Positions 9,093-22,290 of a stretch of DNA of 28,110 nucleotides are shown here, in pieces. This stretch comes from a virus. Lineage: Duplodnaviria; Heunggongvirae; Uroviricota; Caudoviricetes. Position 1 is the stretch's first letter. Every line of letters begins with the position of its first letter. The stretch lies in the IMG/VR virus record IMGVR_UViG_651053022_000001; one strand, given 5' to 3'. Below the pieces are notes generated by a model, which was given only the letters and a program-made list of their open reading frames with translations, had not been told where the DNA came from and made no database searches. The translations under genes were made by a program, and so were the position numbers.

Positions 9093-9129
9093 AAAAACCG
9101 CTAATGGTCAGATTAGCGGTTTTCATTTT
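9093..9129. terminator. bidirectional hairpin between U and the invertase remnant
   Basis: Stem ccgctaat / attagcgg flanked by an A-run and a T-run. Confidence 0.5.
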
Positions 9130-9670
9130 CCTGAGTCTGCCCGGTTGTTTCTTCAGTCTGTATATCGCCTACAGGGTGATAACGATAAATCGTCGATGTG
9201 CCAATGCCGTAAATTATTGCCAGTTGTTTTCTGTCGTGCCCGTTTTTGATTAGCCTTGCTATTTGCTCATGCTGTTCTTTTGTCAGCTTCGGTCGACGTC
9301 CGCCTGTGCGCCCCCTTGCGCGCGCTGCCGCCAGCCCGGCCAGTGTACGTTCAACAATTAATTCACGTTCCATTTCAGCCAGGGCACCCATCACGTGGAA
9401 GAAAAAACGCCCCATTGGAGAAGATGTGTCTATGCTGTCGGTCAGACTGCGAAAATTAATCCCTCGCTCCCGTAGTTCCCCGACGAGAGAAATCAGATGT
9501 TTCATGCTTCGCCCGAGGCGATCCAGTTTCCAGACAACCAGCGTGTCACCTTTTTGAAGGCGCTTTAAAGCGCGTTTTAATCCCGGTCGGTCTGTCTTTG
9601 TCCCGCTTAATTTATCTTCAAATATTTGTTCACATCCTGCACAAACAAGAGCGTTTCGTTGCAGGTCTTT
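9113..9670 (-). pseudogene. Gin/Pin/Cin/Hin-family serine DNA invertase, 5'-truncated
   Basis: Hand translation upstream of the track ORF gives KDLQRNALVCAGCEQIFEDKLSGTKTDRPGLKRALKRLQKGDTLVVWKLDRLGRSMKHLISLVGELRERGINFRSLTDSIDTSSPMGRFFFHVMGALAEMERELIVERTLAGLAAARARGR..., near-identical to Gin as I recall it from the equivalent of residue 16 onward. An in-frame TAA at 9671-9673 removes the first ~15 residues including the catalytic serine. Confidence 0.85.
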
Positions 9671-10013
9671 TTATCATTTTTTCATCATAAATACCTTCAC
9701 GAATACTTACAGCAACTCGCTCGTAAAAATTTAAAATATATTGAAATTTTCGACGCTCGGCCATTTCTTCATCTGTTATTATGCAACCATCACAAGGAAA
9801 AACATAAGAACGAAATGATTTGCCTGAACGATGCACTTGTTTCAGGGTATGCAATGACTCTATATATTGCATATCTTGCCGACTCTCAAAAAGAAAGTTG
9901 GCCGTTTGAGTTTTTTTTGCGGTACGCACATTGTAGATAATGGTTCCAATGGCAACCAAAACGCCAAGCAGAACAATAGCATTGCTGATGATTTGTAGTG
10001 TTATTGGGTTCAT
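9630..10013 (-). CDS. hypothetical membrane-anchored protein (N-terminal TM helix), 127 aa
   Basis: ORF in AT-rich DNA with a 24-residue hydrophobic segment (ITLQIISNAIVLLGVLVAIGTIIY) then a charged soluble region; last ~13 codons are read from invertase-derived DNA in another frame, so the C-terminus is probably not native. No family recognised. Confidence 0.5.
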   Translation of the reverse strand: MNPITLQIISNAIVLLGVLVAIGTIIYNVRTAKKTQTANFLFESRQDMQYIESLHTLKQVHRSGKSFRSYVFPCDGCIITDEEMAERRKFQYILNFYERVAVSIREGIYDEKMIKRPATKRSCLCRM

Positions 10014-10027
10014 CCTATTTCATCCAT

Positions 10028-10058
10028 AAAAAAGGCGGGGAGCAAATCCCCGCCTCAT
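10028..10058 (-). terminator. intrinsic terminator or attenuator hairpin immediately upstream of the 127-aa ORF
   Basis: Stem ggcgggga / tccccgcc, loop of ~5 nt; on the minus strand followed by tttttt, then the ATG of the 127-aa ORF 9 nt later. Confidence 0.5.
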
Positions 10059-10074
10059 TAGAGGTCAACGTAGC

Positions 10075-10110
10075 TTAGAAACCATCAAATTCATCATACA
10101 TTTTTTTCAT
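10075..10110 (-). CDS. 11-codon upstream ORF (MKKMYDEFDGF), candidate leader peptide
   Basis: ATG preceded by GAGGGGG SD at 5-nt spacing; stop 17 nt before the hairpin. Too short to be certain. Confidence 0.25.
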   Translation of the reverse strand: MKKMYDEFDGF

Positions 10111-10162
10111 ATCAACCCCCTCATAGAAATCATAACCACGTTTTGTGGTTTTTGTGACGTAT

Positions 10163-10191
10163 AAACTACATCAAAGGCAAGCCACGGTCAA
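10163..10191 (-). promoter_or_regulatory. candidate sigma70 promoter for the minus-strand cargo transcript
   Basis: Minus-strand TTGACC (-35), 17-bp spacer, TAGTTT (-10), about 50 nt upstream of the small ORF. Confidence 0.3.
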
Positions 10192-10210: not shown

Positions 10211-10240
10211 TGCACAAAAGTGCACAAATTTGCACAATTT
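10211..10240. repeat. three phased direct repeats TGCACAA at exact 10-bp spacing
   Basis: tgcacaaaag / tgcacaaatt / tgcacaattt; a fourth TGCACAA at 10303-10309; inverted TTTTGTG copies at about 10141-10160. Confidence 0.7.
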
Positions 10241-10608
10241 TTTTGAACGACTTTTTACCCTTCCGGCCCGCATGGCGGCTGGATCCGTCAAGGATCCGTG
10301 CGTGCACAAAAAAACGCGCTTTTTCTGCGCGCAGGTGACGGGGGAACAGCCCGCGTTTCAGGGGGTAAATAGCATTCCCTGAACGATGTCGCAGAGACAC
10401 AACAGAATGGCCATATTTCTCACGCTGAGCATGAAAAAGGCGTGAGGGCTTTTGATTTGATGGGGTGAAAGGTAAGGCCGTCAAAATCGCACTGAGGCAG
10501 CGAGAACATGCAGTCAACGCGGTGGAATTGCGTAAGAGTCTGACCGTCGATGGTGGCGATAAACTGGAAGGCGTCGTGAAATTATCTGATTGATACAGGA
10601 GCTGGAGA

Positions 10609-10736: not shown

Positions 10737-11261
10737 ATGGTCATTAATTACAAGCAGTTAAGAGAAAAACGGGAGCAGGTAAAGGAGAGCTTTCGCCGCA
10801 ATGAAGATCTGACCCCGCTTGTACGCCTTGCCCAGGGCATTGTTGATGCTTATGAAATCTCGCTGGAGCTGCCATCACAGACCTGGACAGATAGCGACGG
10901 TAATCGCCAGCATTACGTTTCATGCGGACTGGAAGCAGCCGAAGGATTTCGCAGAATGCCTTTATCCCAGATCCCTGCCGCTACCCCCAAAGCACGGGGC
11001 AGCAATGATGAGCGAAAACTGACTTTTAGTATTGAAACGGTGGTTGACGACACACCTGGCGAAGTCGCGTTCGTGCACACTCCTGTTTCGATCGCAATGT
11101 ATAACGATGAAATACAGGTTCGCGTTAATAATAATATCGTGCCACTTAAAGAAGGTAATTCACCCTACACCACCGTTTGTGAAGCCATTCAATATTACGT
11201 TCTCTCTGAAATTGATAATCTCAAGCCTGACGGCACCCAGAAAATGGTTCAACTCTGGTAA
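10737..11261 (+). CDS. hypothetical soluble protein, 174 aa (cargo gene next to portal gene Q)
   Basis: ORF with GGAGG SD 7-8 nt upstream of ATG 10737 (track ORF starts at an upstream alternative start, 10698); acidic, no TM segment; no family recognised. Confidence 0.6.
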   Translation: MVINYKQLREKREQVKESFRRNEDLTPLVRLAQGIVDAYEISLELPSQTWTDSDGNRQHYVSCGLEAAEGFRRMPLSQIPAATPKARGSNDERKLTFSIETVVDDTPGEVAFVHTPVSIAMYNDEIQVRVNNNIVPLKEGNSPYTTVCEAIQYYVLSEIDNLKPDGTQKMVQLW

Positions 11262-11292
11262 AAAGGACAGCCCCATCACGGGGCTGTTTTTT
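11261..11292. terminator. bidirectional terminator shared by the 174-aa ORF and portal gene Q
   Basis: Stem cagcccc / ggggctg with A-run before and tttttt after; the Q stop codon lies in the loop. Confidence 0.6.
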
Positions 11293-18108: not shown

Positions 18109-18497
18109 GCAACACATTTAAATTCAGCAGCCGGAGCGAAAAGAATTTGCAGGGTGTAAATCCTGATCTGGTGAAAGTGACCCGACGGGCGCTGGAAATC
18201 TCGGAAGTGGATTTTGGTATCACCGAAGGATTGCGCAGTCGTTATCGTCAGAAGCAGCTCGTGACCACAGGCAAGAGCCAGACCATGAACAGTCGCCATC
18301 TCACAGGGCATGCCGTGGATGTTGTGGCTTATGTCGGCAACCAGGTGTCATGGGAATGGCCGCTGTACGAAAAAATCGCAGCAGCATTCAGACAGGCCAG
18401 CCAGGAACTGAATATTCCGGTGGAATGGGGCGGCGACTGGAAGACCCTGAAAGACGGACCGCATTTTCAGTTACCACACGGAGCCTATCCGGCATGA
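18105..18497 (+). CDS. endolysin, peptidase M15 family (zinc L-Ala-D-Glu / D-Ala-D-Ala peptidase type)
   Basis: 130 aa with SRHLTGHAVD and DGPHFQ zinc-ligand style motifs; this differs from the lysozyme-type gpK of P2. Confidence 0.8.
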   Translation: MSNTFKFSSRSEKNLQGVNPDLVKVTRRALEISEVDFGITEGLRSRYRQKQLVTTGKSQTMNSRHLTGHAVDVVAYVGNQVSWEWPLYEKIAAAFRQASQELNIPVEWGGDWKTLKDGPHFQLPHGAYPA

Positions 18498-18889
18498 AGC
18501 TCTGGCCCACGCTTGGCGTCGCTTTCCTTCTGATTACATCCATGCGTCTGTCGTGGTCGCTGGGCCGGGAGAACGCCAGAAACGAAGCGCAGGCCAGCAC
18601 CCTGAAAAGTACCGTCGACACACTGAATATCATCAGCGCCGGGGTACAGGATATGCAGCAGGTGCTGGCTCAGCTCCGCGCGGAAAATCAGCAACGCAAT
18701 CAGGACGGAGAGGTAAGACGTGAACAGCTACGCAACGATATTGCAAAAGATGAATGCGCCCACGCTTTGCCTGACGCTCGTTTTACTGACAGGTTGCGCA
18801 GGCACGCAGAACGCGCCAGGGCCAGCGCCGTCAGTCCGGCTTATACCGCAGACGCTGACCATGCCGGTAACGCCTCCCCCCTTCCCTGA
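18494..18889 (+). CDS. i-spanin (Rz / LysB-like)
   Basis: N-terminal TM anchor (LWPTLGVAFLLITSM) and a coiled-coil periplasmic region; start overlaps the endolysin stop. Confidence 0.7.
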   Translation: MKLWPTLGVAFLLITSMRLSWSLGRENARNEAQASTLKSTVDTLNIISAGVQDMQQVLAQLRAENQQRNQDGEVRREQLRNDIAKDECAHALPDARFTDRLRRHAERARASAVSPAYTADADHAGNASPLP

Positions 18890-19031
18890 CCCACCCACAT
18901 GGGGAAACCTCGGAATATGGGGCGACCGCCTTCTGGATGCACTGGAAACCTGTAACGCGGATAAACGGGCCATTGCTGAACTGGATAAGAGAATAGCCGA
19001 ACTGACACACCAGACGGGAGTAACACAATGA
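18750..19031 (+). CDS. o-spanin (Rz1 / LysC-like lipoprotein), overlapped architecture
   Basis: Lipobox LLTGC after a short signal peptide, Pro-rich; begins inside the i-spanin gene in another frame and extends past it. GTG 18720 is an alternative start. Confidence 0.65.
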   Translation: MNAPTLCLTLVLLTGCAGTQNAPGPAPSVRLIPQTLTMPVTPPPFPDPPTWGNLGIWGDRLLDALETCNADKRAIAELDKRIAELTHQTGVTQ

Positions 19032-21799
19032 CCAGTAAGAACTTTGCACTGATTACAGCCATGACACAGGCTGAACTGACTCAAAAGGTGAATGAACATC
19101 TTGCGAAAGGGTGGCATCTTCAGGGGGAGACGCGGGTTGCCTACGAACCCGGCACCCCGTGGTATCTAATGCAGGCAATGGTGGCCGATGGCACTACAGA
19201 CATCTCACCTGATTCCCCCCAGCACGGCAGCGTGCCGGAGTGGTATTACGTGGTGGTACTTGCTGGTCAATCCAATGCCATGTCATATGGTGAGGGAATG
19301 CCGCTGCCGGATTCTTACGATGCGCCCCACCCACGCATTAAGCAACTGGCCCGTCGCAACACAGTGACTCCCGGTGGTAAAGCATGCGCATTTAACGACA
19401 TCATTCCGGCAGACCACTGCCTGCATGATGTTCAGGATATGAGCGCACTGAATCACCCGAATGCAGACCTGAGCAAAGGGCAGTATGGCTGTGTCGGACA
19501 GGGCTTGCATATTGCCAAACGCCTGTTGCCTTACATTCCACAGAATGCCGGGATTTTACTGGTTCCATGCTGTCGTGGTGGTTCGGCATTCACCCAGGGC
19601 GCGGAGGGGACATTCAGCGAGTCCACAGGAGCCAGTCAGGATTCGGCTCGCTGGGGTGTGGGTAAACCTTTATATCAGGACCTGATTTTGCGCACGAAGG
19701 CCGCATTGCAGAAAAACCCAAAAAACATGCTGCTGGCCGTATGCTGGATGCAGGGCGAATTTGACATGAGCGCCGCTACGTACTCACAGCAACCTCCGCT
19801 GTTTACGGCCATGCTGAAACAGTTTCGTGCGGACATTACCGAGTTTAACACGCAGTGTCATGGAGGCAGAGCGGCAAGTGTGCCATGGATTTGTGGTGAC
19901 ACGACGTATTACTGGAAAAACACCTACGGCACGCAGTACGACACCATTTACGGGGCGTACAAAAACAGGGAGAGCGACAACGTTTTCTTTGTGCCGTTCC
20001 TGACCGATGGTAGTGGCAACAATACCTCCACCAACGCACCAACGGAAGATCCGGATGCTGCAAGTGAGGGAACCCTGATGCAGGCGATTGCAGCAGAAGG
20101 TGATGTGGTCGTCAGTGGTGCAACTGAGCCGGAGTGGTACTACGTCATCGTACTGGCCGGGCAATCCAATGCCATGGCTTACGGTGAAGGGCTTCCGCTT
20201 CCGGATTCATACGATGCGCCCCATCCGCGCATTAAGCAACTGGCCCGTCGTAACACAGTGACTCCCGGTGGTGAAGTATGCGTATTTAACGACATCATTC
20301 CTGCTGACCATTGTCTGCATGATGTTCAGGATATGAGTACGATTAACCATCCCCGGGCTGACCTGAGCAAAGGGCAGTACGGCTGTGTCGGACAGGGCTT
20401 ACATATTGCCAAAAAACTGCTTCCGTATATCCCTAATAATGCGGGGATCCTGCTGGTACCATGCTGTCGTGGTGGTTCGGCATTCACCCAGGGCACGGAG
20501 GGGACATTCAGCGAGTCCACGGGGGCCAGTCAGGATTCGGCTCGCTGGGGAGTGGGTAAGCCGTTATATCAGGATCTGCTTTTCCGCACGAAGGCAGCAT
20601 TGCAGAAAAACCCGAAAAACGTTTTGCTGGCGATATGCTGGATGCAGGGGGAATTCGATATGACGAATGCCAGTTACGCCCAGCAGCCAGCAGCATTTCT
20701 TGCAATGGTACAGCAGTTCCGTGCTGACCTTGCCGGGCTGGCGGCGCAGTGTCACGGTGGAAGTCCGGCATCAGTCCCCTGGATTTGTGGCGACACGACA
20801 TACGCGTGGAAACAAGAACACGGTACGCAATATGAAGTGGTATATGGTGCATATAAAGGTAAAGAATCCCAGCAGATTTATTTTGTTCCCTTTATGACCG
20901 ATGGTAGCGGAGTTAATACACCGACAAACAACCCGTCAGAAGATCCTGATATTGCCGGGTCTGGTTATTACGGTTCGGCATCCCGAACGAACAAAAACTG
21001 GGTATCATCAAATCGCCAGACGCATTTCAGCTCATGGGCGCGTCGTGGCATTATTCCCGATCGTATGGCAACCGCTATTCTGAACGTAGCCGGTCGCACC
21101 TTAGCCTTCATCAGTGGTAAGGCACCGGAAATCAAACCCTCGCCCGGCGGCGACACGCCATCGGGGCCGTCTGAAGATGCATCCGTACGCACAATCTCCC
21201 TGTTGCCGACAGCCGGAGATGCTGCTGCGCAGGGCTGGAGCATTAAGAATGGCGGAATTCAGTTGTCAGATGGTGTATTTAAGATCACCAAGCAGAGCAA
21301 TAAAGCCTGGTCCCTGACGCGCCCGGTGGATGACGCAGTCTCCCTGCTGACACGGGGTGGCAGACTGAGCTGTAAGTTTCGACTGTCAGGCGCACTGACC
21401 AACAATCAGTTCGGTCTGGGAATTTATCTGTATACCGATGTAGCGTTACCTGACGTCGTGGCGATGACCGGGACTGGTAACCCGTTCCTGATGTCGTTCT
21501 TCACCCAGACCACAGACGGCAAACTGAATCTGATGCATCACAAGAAAGCAGGAAACACAAAGTTGGGCGAGTTCGGGAATTACAGTAACGACTGGCAGAC
21601 GCTGGAGCTGGTGTTCACCGCCGGCAGTGCCACGGTTACTCCGAAACTGAATGGAGTGGCTGGCCCGGCATTCCAGGTCATAAAAGACAGTCTGACACTG
21701 GGGCTGAATGCGCTGACGTTAACTGATATCACTAAAAATGCCGCGTACGGCGTCGATATCGGCAGCCTGGTGCTGGAAATCAATAATCCCGCAGCATAA
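19028..21799 (+). CDS. NanS-p-like prophage O-acetylesterase: DUF1737-type N-terminus, two tandem SGNH/sialate O-acetylesterase domains, C-terminal putative carbohydrate-binding domain
   Basis: 923 aa; the GQSNAMxYGEG esterase block occurs twice (about residues 70-345 and 365-640) with highly similar sequence. Confidence 0.8.
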   Translation: MTSKNFALITAMTQAELTQKVNEHLAKGWHLQGETRVAYEPGTPWYLMQAMVADGTTDISPDSPQHGSVPEWYYVVVLAGQSNAMSYGEGMPLPDSYDAPHPRIKQLARRNTVTPGGKACAFNDIIPADHCLHDVQDMSALNHPNADLSKGQYGCVGQGLHIAKRLLPYIPQNAGILLVPCCRGGSAFTQGAEGTFSESTGASQDSARWGVGKPLYQDLILRTKAALQKNPKNMLLAVCWMQGEFDMSAATYSQQPPLFTAMLKQFRADITEFNTQCHGGRAASVPWICGDTTYYWKNTYGTQYDTIYGAYKNRESDNVFFVPFLTDGSGNNTSTNAPTEDPDAASEGTLMQAIAAEGDVVVSGATEPEWYYVIVLAGQSNAMAYGEGLPLPDSYDAPHPRIKQLARRNTVTPGGEVCVFNDIIPADHCLHDVQDMSTINHPRADLSKGQYGCVGQGLHIAKKLLPYIPNNAGILLVPCCRGGSAFTQGTEGTFSESTGASQDSARWGVGKPLYQDLLFRTKAALQKNPKNVLLAICWMQGEFDMTNASYAQQPAAFLAMVQQFRADLAGLAAQCHGGSPASVPWICGDTTYAWKQEHGTQYEVVYGAYKGKESQQIYFVPFMTDGSGVNTPTNNPSEDPDIAGSGYYGSASRTNKNWVSSNRQTHFSSWARRGIIPDRMATAILNVAGRTLAFISGKAPEIKPSPGGDTPSGPSEDASVRTISLLPTAGDAAAQGWSIKNGGIQLSDGVFKITKQSNKAWSLTRPVDDAVSLLTRGGRLSCKFRLSGALTNNQFGLGIYLYTDVALPDVVAMTGTGNPFLMSFFTQTTDGKLNLMHHKKAGNTKLGEFGNYSNDWQTLELVFTAGSATVTPKLNGVAGPAFQVIKDSLTLGLNALTLTDITKNAAYGVDIGSLVLEINNPAA
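19233..20965 (+). repeat. in-frame tandem duplication (two units of ~840 bp, period 894 bp) inside the esterase gene
   Basis: Long stretches read almost identically at 19233-20070 and 20127-20965 (for example gagtggta..gcattcacccagggc..gaggggacattcagcgagtccac); by eye roughly 85-90 percent identity. Confidence 0.85.
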
Positions 21800-21822: not shown

Positions 21823-22290
21823 ATGCTTAAGACAAACAGTCTGCGAGAGTCCATGCTTCATGGGTGTCGGTGGTGCCAGGCTAATCCCGAGAAATTCACC
21901 ATTTTCGTGGAGAGCGGCAACATTGAAACGACCGGAGAAGCGCCCTCGTTTGTTTACCGCTATCAGATGGTGATGTTTGTCATGGATTACGCCGGAGAGC
22001 TGGACGACCTCACGCTGCCGCTGCTGGCGTGGTTATCCGAAAATCAGCCACAGTTGTTGCTCAATCCGGAGCGTAATCAGGACATCAAATTTTCTGCCGT
22101 TATCAATGACGATGACAGCGCCGATCTCCTGTTTACGCTCCCCCTGCGGGAACGCGTTCGCATCACGCGCAACAGTCAGGGCACACCGCAGGCAGAACAC
22201 CTGCCGGAGCCAAAACCCCGTCTGCCTTCTTCCGAAGGCGACTGGTCGCATGTATTCCAGGATGTGACGTGGGGTGAAAGCGATGGATAA
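21823..22290 (+). CDS. R: tail completion protein (P2 gpR-like)
   Basis: 155 aa, same size and position as P2 gpR. Confidence 0.85.
   Translation: MLKTNSLRESMLHGCRWCQANPEKFTIFVESGNIETTGEAPSFVYRYQMVMFVMDYAGELDDLTLPLLAWLSENQPQLLLNPERNQDIKFSAVINDDDSADLLFTLPLRERVRITRNSQGTPQAEHLPEPKPRLPSSEGDWSHVFQDVTWGESDG

Follow-up and report, generated by a model that had tools for sequence, protein, structure and literature searches.

The window analysed here is the whole 28,110-nucleotide stretch of tailed-phage DNA (Caudoviricetes) in IMG/VR record IMGVR_UViG_651053022_000001. It is P2-like (Peduoviridae) prophage DNA with tape measure, gpU, portal Q, terminase P, capsid and baseplate genes. The subject of this report is a short leader region on its minus strand, located between the portal gene and the replication/partition genes, i.e. 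at the cos-proximal old/tin position. The leader comprises a promoter, a Shine-Dalgarno (SD) sequence, an 11-codon open reading frame (ORF) encoding MKKMYDEFDGF and an intrinsic terminator, and it precedes the gene of a membrane protein of the DUF4760 family (Table 1).

Table 1. Features of the leader and of the truncated gene behind it, with positions in the window
Feature	Position	Strand	Description
Sigma-70 promoter of the leader	10163..10191	(-)	TTGACC 10191-10186, 17-nt spacer, TAGTTT 10168-10163; predicted from the sequence
5' hairpin of the leader RNA	10134..10150	(-)	AACCAC aaaac GUGGUU; part of the minimum-free-energy fold
SD sequence GAGGGGG of the small ORF	10116..10122	(-)	ATG 5 nt downstream
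11-codon ORF, MKKMYDEFDGF	10075..10110	(-)	ATG 10110, TAA 10077-10075; x-[FY]DEFDGF mini-ORF family
Anti-SD-like element UUGACCUCU	10060..10068	(-)	within the 18-nt spacer between stop codon and terminator
Intrinsic terminator	10028..10056	(-)	10-bp stem, 7 G-C pairs, 5-nt loop, U6
5' part (~116 codons) of the DUF4760 (PF15956) gene	9667..10013	(-)	N-terminal transmembrane helix and helical domain
Junction of DUF4760 with a 5'-truncated P88/Xuanwuvirus-type DNA invertase gene (9113-9665)	9666..9668	(.)	AGA microhomology

The first-pass annotation of this DNA had listed a strong SD sequence, the 11-codon ORF and a GC-rich hairpin with a U-tract, and all three are present on the minus strand in that order. 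Its distances need small corrections. Stop codon and hairpin are separated by 18 nt and not by 17 nt, and the ATG of the downstream 127-codon ORF, at 10013, lies 9 nt after the terminator only when counted from the end coordinate used there; counted from the last U of the tract, it lies 14 nt downstream. A sigma-70 promoter is indeed found upstream, but the comparatively conserved one is TTGACC-17-TAGTTT and not the consensus-scan match GTCACA-18-TATGAT. Diverged relatives carry TTGACT-17-TAATTT at the matching place, and the promoter architecture is thus kept; transcription probably starts at about position 10156. The hairpin, GAGGCGGGGA/UUUGC/UCCCCGCCUU at 10056-10032 with U6 at 10033-10028, folds with -20.3 kcal/mol, compared to -9.6 +/- 2.1 kcal/mol for shuffled sequences (z -5.0; none of 200 shuffles was as good), and is the top-ranked terminator-like site of the region. 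The layout is beyond chance, as judged by this z-score, the terminator rank and the conservation in 31 distinct relatives.

For this comparison, loci were retrieved by the DUF4760 protein alone and their upstream regions were inspected afterwards, which kept the retrieval unbiased. The IMG/VR set contains 39 loci with 74-100% identity and 24 distinct upstream regions; small ORF and hairpin are located upstream of DUF4760 in all of them but one, in which an insertion sequence (IS) element lies in the hairpin. Both elements are also kept in 12 further homologues with 40-63% identity, found in a lambdoid prophage, in a lambda-like tail region and in several chromosomal islands. When distinct relatives are counted (40-100% identity; P2-like and other prophages, chromosomal islands), small ORF, hairpin and gene are all retained in 31 of 31. 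Across these 31 leaders, the small ORF has 10-13 codons and ends with TAA (28/31) or TGA (3/31), the hairpin energies range from -13 to -23 kcal/mol, and the DUF4760 start follows 13-40 nt after the end of the hairpin. In 26 of the 31, stop codon and hairpin are 14-18 nt apart, while the sequence of this spacer is not conserved. Diverged relatives use other GC-rich hairpins at an unchanged position, AAGGGGG or GGAGG at the position of the SD sequence, and 5' leader hairpins of other sequence (ACUAC/GUAGU, UCACU/GUGAA). The upstream mini-ORF is annotated in none of the records examined. Sequence comparison thus indicates that the combination of small ORF, hairpin and DUF4760 is an old and mobile module under selection.

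The first relatives encode MKKVFDEFDGF (Citrobacter phage Shae_phiSM), MNKAFDEFDGF (E. coli JNEC-KY208) and MKKRYDEFDGF (plasmid pMS21199B); their conserved codons differ synonymously, and the hairpin shows one compensatory change from G-C to A-U. An alignment of 16 distinct diverged P2-type leaders revealed that all six third positions of the DEFDGF codons are variable, compared to none of the 12 first and second positions, while the 3-4 N-terminal codons are free to vary. In P2-type leaders, the seven C-terminal residues are invariant and only synonymous changes occur. This pattern indicates that the small ORF is translated and subject to codon-level purifying selection. The peptide type tracks the DUF4760 clade. 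DEFDGF accompanies homologues with at least 59% identity, as in MKKFDEFDGF (L288, upstream of a Yersinia enterocolitica protein, and L292, Lelliottia) and MKKCDEFDGF (L287, Enterobacter sp. R4-368). DEYEGV is found in Klebsiella and Serratia (L381 and L384, MKKFDEYEGV) and in L290 (MEKFDEYEGV), and DEFEGF in Providencia (L284, L383; M[VI]NYIRDEFEGF); both clades are hosted by Klebsiella. Further variants are MKNFDEFEGF (L291), MRYSDEYEGL (L285, Entomohabitans) and MMKRIICDEFEWV (L382, Photorhabdus), and the homologue with 40% identity (L289) is preceded by MKMKDTSGGL and a hairpin.

Some copies of the module are rearranged. In E. coli MSI001 (L007:2678-3861) and also in L026, L034, L043 and L172, the terminator hairpin is interrupted after ..GATTTGCTCCC by an IS4-family element (IS421); the insertion parts the small ORF from DUF4760, which is then annotated as frameshifted. 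On pMS21199B, a 49-kb plasmid with phage-like genes (L008:2553-2765), the P2-type leader and its terminator are 80% identical and DUF4760 is absent behind them; a 33-codon ORF encoding the hydrophobic peptide MATFKRWSALSLSILLHVPILAWLIARQINARL follows directly after the U-tract.

The hexapeptide also occurs outside the module. IMG/VR was scanned for M-x-DEFDGF-stop with full degeneracy at synonymous sites, and the permuted motif M-x-FDGDFE-stop, composed of the same codons, served as control. These 8-codon mini-ORFs were found at at least 120 loci, compared to 0 for the control, and a search of 185,579 species-representative genomes retrieved 8 loci, 6 of them in Enterobacterales. In lambdoid phages, copies are located after the Q antiterminator gene and its terminator. 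Some copies overlap the end of a gene whose product appears, as judged by eye from the sequence, to have a ClpX-zinc-finger-like motif at its C-terminus. Others follow a conserved phage gene of 123-133 amino acids, the stop codon of which overlaps their start (ATGA), and are themselves followed by a palindrome, a terminator and the convergent terL gene; at this locus the 24-nt mini-ORF can be present or absent, and its stop codon is TAA or TAG. The 12-bp palindrome GTGACATGTCAC flanks terS-terL together with a terminator in inverted orientation (L014, L165, L156 and many IMG/VR loci; TL-2011b-like phages). Each palindrome copy is often accompanied by a DEFDGF mini-ORF, and the genes that end immediately ahead of the downstream copy vary widely.

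T4-like phages (Dhaka-, Gapriver- and Mosigvirus) carry two to three tandem 8-codon mini-ORFs upstream of a-gt.2, encoding M[KN]DEHPDF, MNDEYEKV and MNDEFDGF, each preceded by its own TAAGAGG. MNDEFDGF is intact in seven of seven T4-like genomes (IME08, SP18, dhabil, CJ20, UP19, VR25 and ESh27; L155:1480-1570 and L439-L444), and the changes at its four variable sites are all silent when read as mini-ORF but alter the protein when read in the annotated a-gt.2 frame. The annotated a-gt.2 start falls inside the last mini-ORF in a different frame, and it is the reading frame of the mini-ORF on which selection acts. In T4 itself, VKDEHP.. is joined to the body of a-gt.2 by a 1-nt deletion.

A further scan for DEHPDF-stop revealed fused two-unit peptides of the form M(F/P/K)DEFDGFDEHPDF, such as MFDEFDGFDEHPDF, MPDEFDGFDEHPDF, MKDEFDGFDEHPDF and ..LDEFEGFDEHPDF (IMG/VR L445, L459, L474, L464, L458, L463). 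It also revealed a sister module, in which a small ORF encoding MIR[NK]FR[FY]SDEHPDF or MIMKFRFSDEHPDF and a terminator hairpin precede an unrelated multi-transmembrane protein of 323-334 amino acids (L451:490-1606, L460:1690-2789, L471:445-1553, L475). This protein has sub-threshold similarity to the Pfam family YLATT (E ~1e-4). A search for free-standing 8-codon DEYEGV copies found none; it retrieved this type only in DUF4760-linked 10-codon small ORFs and at the C-termini of longer proteins. Release-factor specificity can be ruled out, because TAA, TGA and TAG are all in use. The hexapeptide unit is portable and, as its occurrence in arrays and fusions suggests, behaves as a repeatable unit.

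Not every free-standing copy is under selection, as seen in an abundant mini-ORF family upstream of terS. This family is an in-frame deletion remnant of a 77-amino-acid gene (PHROG 1541) ending in FYDEFDG[F/L/S], and its decay variants include DEFDVF, DEFDGV and a frameshift; a general selection on all free-standing mini-ORFs is therefore excluded. The same family offers a model for a passive origin of the leader, in which the hairpin would be an insulating terminator at the cos-proximal edge of a moron cassette and the small ORF the functionless leftover 3' end of a gene. A cassette boundary about 100 nt upstream of the small ORF, at ~10211, would suit this explanation. Yet the start codon, the SD sequence and the codon-level selection of the small ORF are strictly kept in unrelated contexts and in DUF4760 homologues with as little as 44% identity, whereas a remnant would decay, as the small ORFs of L031 and L036 did along with their DUF4760 genes. 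We therefore consider a passive origin highly improbable.

The first-pass annotation had proposed that the leader may mediate translation-coupled transcription attenuation. In support of this proposal, a short translated ORF under selection and a conserved intrinsic terminator are located between promoter and gene. Moreover, there is no room for a second promoter between the terminator and the DUF4760 start, and DUF4760 therefore depends on read-through and the terminator must limit its expression. The switch itself was not found. When the predicted transcript (10156 to 10026) was folded, the minimum-free-energy structure (-35.9 kcal/mol) comprised three elements: the 5' hairpin, the terminator and, between them, a 10-bp helix in which the SD/AUG region pairs with UUGACCUCU. 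The terminator has a pair probability of 0.999 and forms with or without masking of the small ORF as if it were covered by a ribosome. Before the 3' arm is made, the 5' arm can be engaged elsewhere only in a CCUC/GAGG mini-hairpin of 4 bp that is absent outside the P2 group, and the folding check suggested with the proposal thus yielded no credible antiterminator that would form over the 5' arm in exclusion of the terminator. MKKMYDEFDGF contains no run of regulatory codons; instead, a fixed peptide sequence is conserved. The idea of a ribosome-controlled hairpin is also contradicted by the geometry, because with 14-18 nt between stop codon and hairpin a terminating ribosome, the footprint of which ends ~8 nt before the hairpin, cannot occlude it, and by the occurrence of the motif in arrays, in fusions and where nothing lies downstream. 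Classical leader-peptide attenuation is therefore not supported.

A different cis-acting mechanism would be ribosome arrest. Here, the nascent DEFDGF sequence would arrest the translating ribosome when it reaches the stop codon, perhaps triggered by phage infection or by a metabolite, and thereby alter read-through or DUF4760 translation. In P2-type leaders, the stalled ribosome could keep the anti-SD element UUGACCUCU off the SD sequence and free its CCUC for pairing with GAGG at the base of the terminator. The layout of leader-peptide control in all 31 relatives, together with the lack of an own promoter of DUF4760, suits this mechanism. So does the conservation at the amino-acid level of the residues at the putative stall site, which is restricted to the C-terminus beside the stop codon, as in TnaC or SpeFL. 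It is also in line with the constant stop-to-hairpin distance despite the unconserved spacer, with the three-way complementarity of SD sequence, ACCUCU and terminator-base GAGG in P2-type leaders, with the predicted sequestration of the SD sequence in the short RNA, and with a hexapeptide that is far more conserved than DUF4760. Similar peptides in front of two unrelated membrane proteins would fit a portable sensor cassette, and in the terS family the stop codon is only 5 nt before the terminator, so that a ribosome there would block it. Against stalling, the only antiterminator candidate, with 4 bp, would compete with a -20 kcal/mol terminator, and the hairpin is beyond the reach of a ribosome at the stop codon. 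All three stop codons are in use, and some copies have nothing downstream. Stalling also accounts poorly for tandem arrays with three variants and for fused peptides, the inner unit of which is never at the peptidyl-transferase centre at the stop codon. Two peptide types also coexist in one host genus with the same ribosome. Ribosome arrest is less likely than the explanation favoured below, but a serious rival to it.

The predicted RNA also has features of a regulatory small RNA (sRNA). In this case, the ~130-nt transcript would be the product, UUGACCUCU 5' of the terminator would serve as a seed pairing with the ribosome-binding sites of targets, and the ORF would be secondary. The order of ORF, seed and terminator has a precedent in the dual-function sRNA SgrS/SgrT, the predicted RNA combines a 5' hairpin, a seed region and a terminator with U-tail, and ACCUCU is invariant in 15 of the 16 P2-type leaders. 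However, ACCUCU is missing from non-P2 relatives that keep the peptide, the conservation follows a codon pattern and not an RNA pattern, and in the minimum-free-energy fold the seed is paired with the SD sequence of the RNA itself. UUGACCUCU can pair either with this SD region, forming the 10-bp helix, or via CCUC with GAGG at the terminator base. Across relatives, 79% of the cells of the SD:anti-SD helix are paired, but the covariation is weak (9 of 500 shuffles reach the score) and both partners are conserved for other reasons; this long-range helix is a candidate structure. A search of the whole window against Rfam 15 gave no match at the gathering score, and the leader produced only terminator-like sub-threshold matches (19 and 17 bits, compared to gathering scores of 45-47), so that it does not correspond to a known sRNA family. 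An sRNA as the main product is improbable.

We favour, tentatively and at somewhat less than even odds, the explanation that the leader is a mini-gene for a peptide that probably acts in trans, and that the terminator of this mini-gene holds the peptide at a fixed, high ratio to the membrane protein. The module would consist of two parts, a peptide ORF ending in DE(F/Y)(D/E)G(F/V/L) and, behind the terminator, the DUF4760 membrane protein. Equipped with its own sigma-70 promoter, 5' hairpin, strong SD sequence and a presumably efficient intrinsic terminator, the mini-gene would release most transcripts as a ~130-nt RNA containing the peptide ORF alone, and a minority of read-through transcripts would be the sole source of DUF4760 mRNA. 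In this way the terminator would attenuate constitutively and determine how much peptide is made per membrane protein. Function would reside in the conserved C-terminal hexapeptide, and its most likely target would be the downstream membrane protein or a pathway under its control. Support for the peptide as the product comes from its arrays and fused units, from copies behind which nothing is located, from the use of three stop codons and from the clade-specific types within one host genus.

Several points weigh against this explanation. Its support is comparative throughout. In P2-type leaders, the short RNA is predicted to sequester its own SD sequence and AUG in the 10-bp helix, which is ill-suited to mass production of a peptide, and stable trans-acting peptides of 8-11 residues are rare in bacteria. 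The hexapeptide is 100% conserved while DUF4760 falls to 59% identity, and peptides of a similar kind are found before two membrane proteins that are not related to each other. Both findings would be better explained by a partner that is itself very conserved (the ribosome or a host factor, for instance) than by specific binding to the downstream protein.

A more specific but unlikely version of a trans-acting peptide is a toxin-antitoxin or abortive-infection system of a new kind, in which a labile mini-peptide of 8-13 residues with the C-terminus DE(F/Y/H)xx(F/V) would be the antidote of a membrane effector and phage mimics would counter the system. DUF4760 and the YLATT-like multi-transmembrane protein would be two effector families, and the terminator would keep the antidote in excess. 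The free-standing mini-ORFs would represent antidote mimics of phages that infect the same hosts, as would the fused two-unit peptides in lambdoid phages. The three types of the T4-like arrays, DEHPDF, DEYEKV and DEFDGF, match the small ORF types before the YLATT-like protein, DUF4760 clade B and clade A, respectively, which is suggestive but not proof. PADLOC contained no match for DUF4760 or for the YLATT-like proteins, so neither corresponds to a known defence system. An AlphaFold2 model of intact DUF4760, based on a 38-sequence alignment, has a mean predicted local distance difference test score of 92.9 and is all-helical with a long N-terminal transmembrane/stalk helix. On the antidote hypothesis, the soluble domain would have the fold of the EP domain of plant EDS1/PAD4. 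A Foldseek search of the model against the PDB gave nothing significant, and the PDB contains no sequence relatives of DUF4760. If the EP-domain-like fold were true, it would be the first prokaryotic relative of this plant EDS1-family receptor domain to be found.

The layout of small ORF, terminator and gene is of a known kind. In contrast, the peptide family appears to be undescribed, as do its strict conservation, the link to DUF4760 and the distribution as phage mini-genes: DEFDGF was not found as a peptide string in the literature, in which DUF4760 is uncharacterised and mentioned in one unrelated paper only. If the peptide is the product, these mini-genes would be among the smallest conserved genes of enterobacterial phages, so far unannotated and present also in T4-like, lambdoid and other phages. 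They would give direct access to the function of DUF4760, which recurs among the cargo genes of the P2 defence hotspot but is uncharacterised. A peptide that acts as a trans-acting partner or antidote would define a new type of two-component prophage module with phage-encoded mimics, whereas a portable stalling cassette would represent a new sensor leader.

The gene behind the leader is truncated in the window. The 127-codon ORF, which had been taken for a gene, is incomplete: its 3' end was replaced at the junction, DUF4760 is cut at about codon 116, and the last 11 codons, ending at 9630, are foreign. Intact DUF4760 has 165 amino acids in ST131 prophages and in the phages vB_EcoM-569R5 and PV468777, and the part present in the window is 100% identical to the ST131 copies. 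Both versions score above the Pfam PF15956 gathering cut-off of 25 bits, with 67.7 bits (E 1.6e-18; profile positions 2-101 of 141) for the window copy and 119.3 bits (E 1.8e-34) for the intact copy. The junction with the invertase gene occurs in 0 of 5,426 complete E. coli genomes, while the leader, which is intact in the window, is carried by 299 of these genomes (~5%), ST131 prophage included. Left of the junction, the sheath, tube, tape measure and gpU genes resemble those of P88-type phages, and the right side resembles P2 phages of the vB_EcoM-569R5 type. The whole early region between the two halves, with D, ogr, int, immunity, replication and par, is absent.

The old/tin position between gpA and gpQ is a defence hotspot of P2 phages, and the combination 'DUF4760 + StbA + Plasmid_stab_B' is recurrent in the locus table of the supplementary files of the corresponding study, the main text of which does not mention DUF4760 (Rousset et al. 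2022, PMC9122126). A neighbouring 280-amino-acid protein gave only a weak PADLOC match to Csx27. In the window, two further ORFs occupy unusual places. A 923-codon ORF at 19028-21799 (PHROG 143 and others) is flanked by an Rz-like spanin gene (18350-18889) and a tail-completion gene (21823-22290), an unusual position for a gene so large in a P2-like late region. A 174-codon ORF at 10737-11261 (PHROG 5091, no Pfam match) occupies a place between gpQ and the presumed cos region that is devoid of genes in P2; it is convergent with the portal gene, and both share a terminator at 11267-11287.

The hairpin was also considered as a candidate for the phage cos site. Its stem has GAGGCGGGGA in common with the P2 cohesive end, but the 19-mer is absent even if three mismatches are allowed, and the 10-mer match is within chance once one mismatch is allowed; this candidate was rejected. 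Similarity to a P2-like cos flank, CTGCGCGC..TGACGG, is found ~280 bp from the hairpin, near 10326-10345, and a second terminator-like hairpin is located at 10332-10314. Just upstream of the leader promoter, at 10211-10245, there are three direct TTGTGCA repeats ~10-11 bp apart, which Tandem Repeats Finder (TRF) reports as TGCACAAAAG x2.7; in P2, the corresponding position, ~95 bp from cosR, is occupied by three similar repeats, (T/G)TGCAT. Repeats and cos-flank motif may be terminase-binding or cos-region elements.

The closest parallel for a terminator that sets a ratio of peptide to protein is mccA-mccB, where a tiny ORF and a terminator in the gap to the next gene produce an abundant short and a minor read-through transcript, which determine how much peptide is made relative to the downstream protein (Zukher et al. 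2014, PMC4231749). Both systems combine a tiny ORF (7 codons in mcc, 8-13 here) with a strong SD sequence and an intrinsic terminator before the next gene, and in both an upstream SD-region sequence is able to pair near the terminator. They differ in that MccA is the substrate of MccB and ends in Asn, while the peptide described here ends in Phe and is followed by the membrane protein DUF4760 and not by an MccB-like modifying enzyme. Furthermore, ribosome binding is needed for termination in mcc (PMC4231749), whereas the terminator of the leader is predicted to form regardless.

With the trp, his, pheA and pyrBI attenuators, the leader shares the order of promoter, short leader ORF, intrinsic terminator and structural gene without a second promoter. 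It lacks their antiterminator and their regulatory codon run, its stop codon is too far from the terminator and, different from classical leaders, the peptide sequence itself is conserved. In the latter respect it resembles the TnaC, SpeFL, SecM and Erm leaders, which also have a short upstream ORF with conserved C-terminal residues by the stop codon or putative stall site. Unlike these arrest leaders, the peptide family uses all three stop codons and occurs in arrays, in fusions and at operon ends, and no rut site or SD-sequestering hairpin lies consistently within the ribosome footprint.

In toxIN, the order is promoter, antidote, Rho-independent terminator and effector, and the terminator sets the ratio of the products; antidote mimicry by phages is known from pseudo-ToxI and from T4 Dmd, which acts against RnlA/LsoA. 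The upstream element of the leader differs from that of toxIN in being a peptide under codon-level selection and not a set of RNA repeats: no tandem repeats are found between leader promoter and terminator, and the sole array (10211-10237) is located further upstream, ahead of the promoter. Instead of an endoribonuclease, a membrane protein is encoded downstream. The similarities to toxIN include the order of the elements, the location on mobile elements and in prophage defence hotspots, and the presence of free-standing antidote-like copies in phages of the same hosts. With the lysogenic-conversion locus old/tin of P2, finally, the leader shares an identical genomic position.

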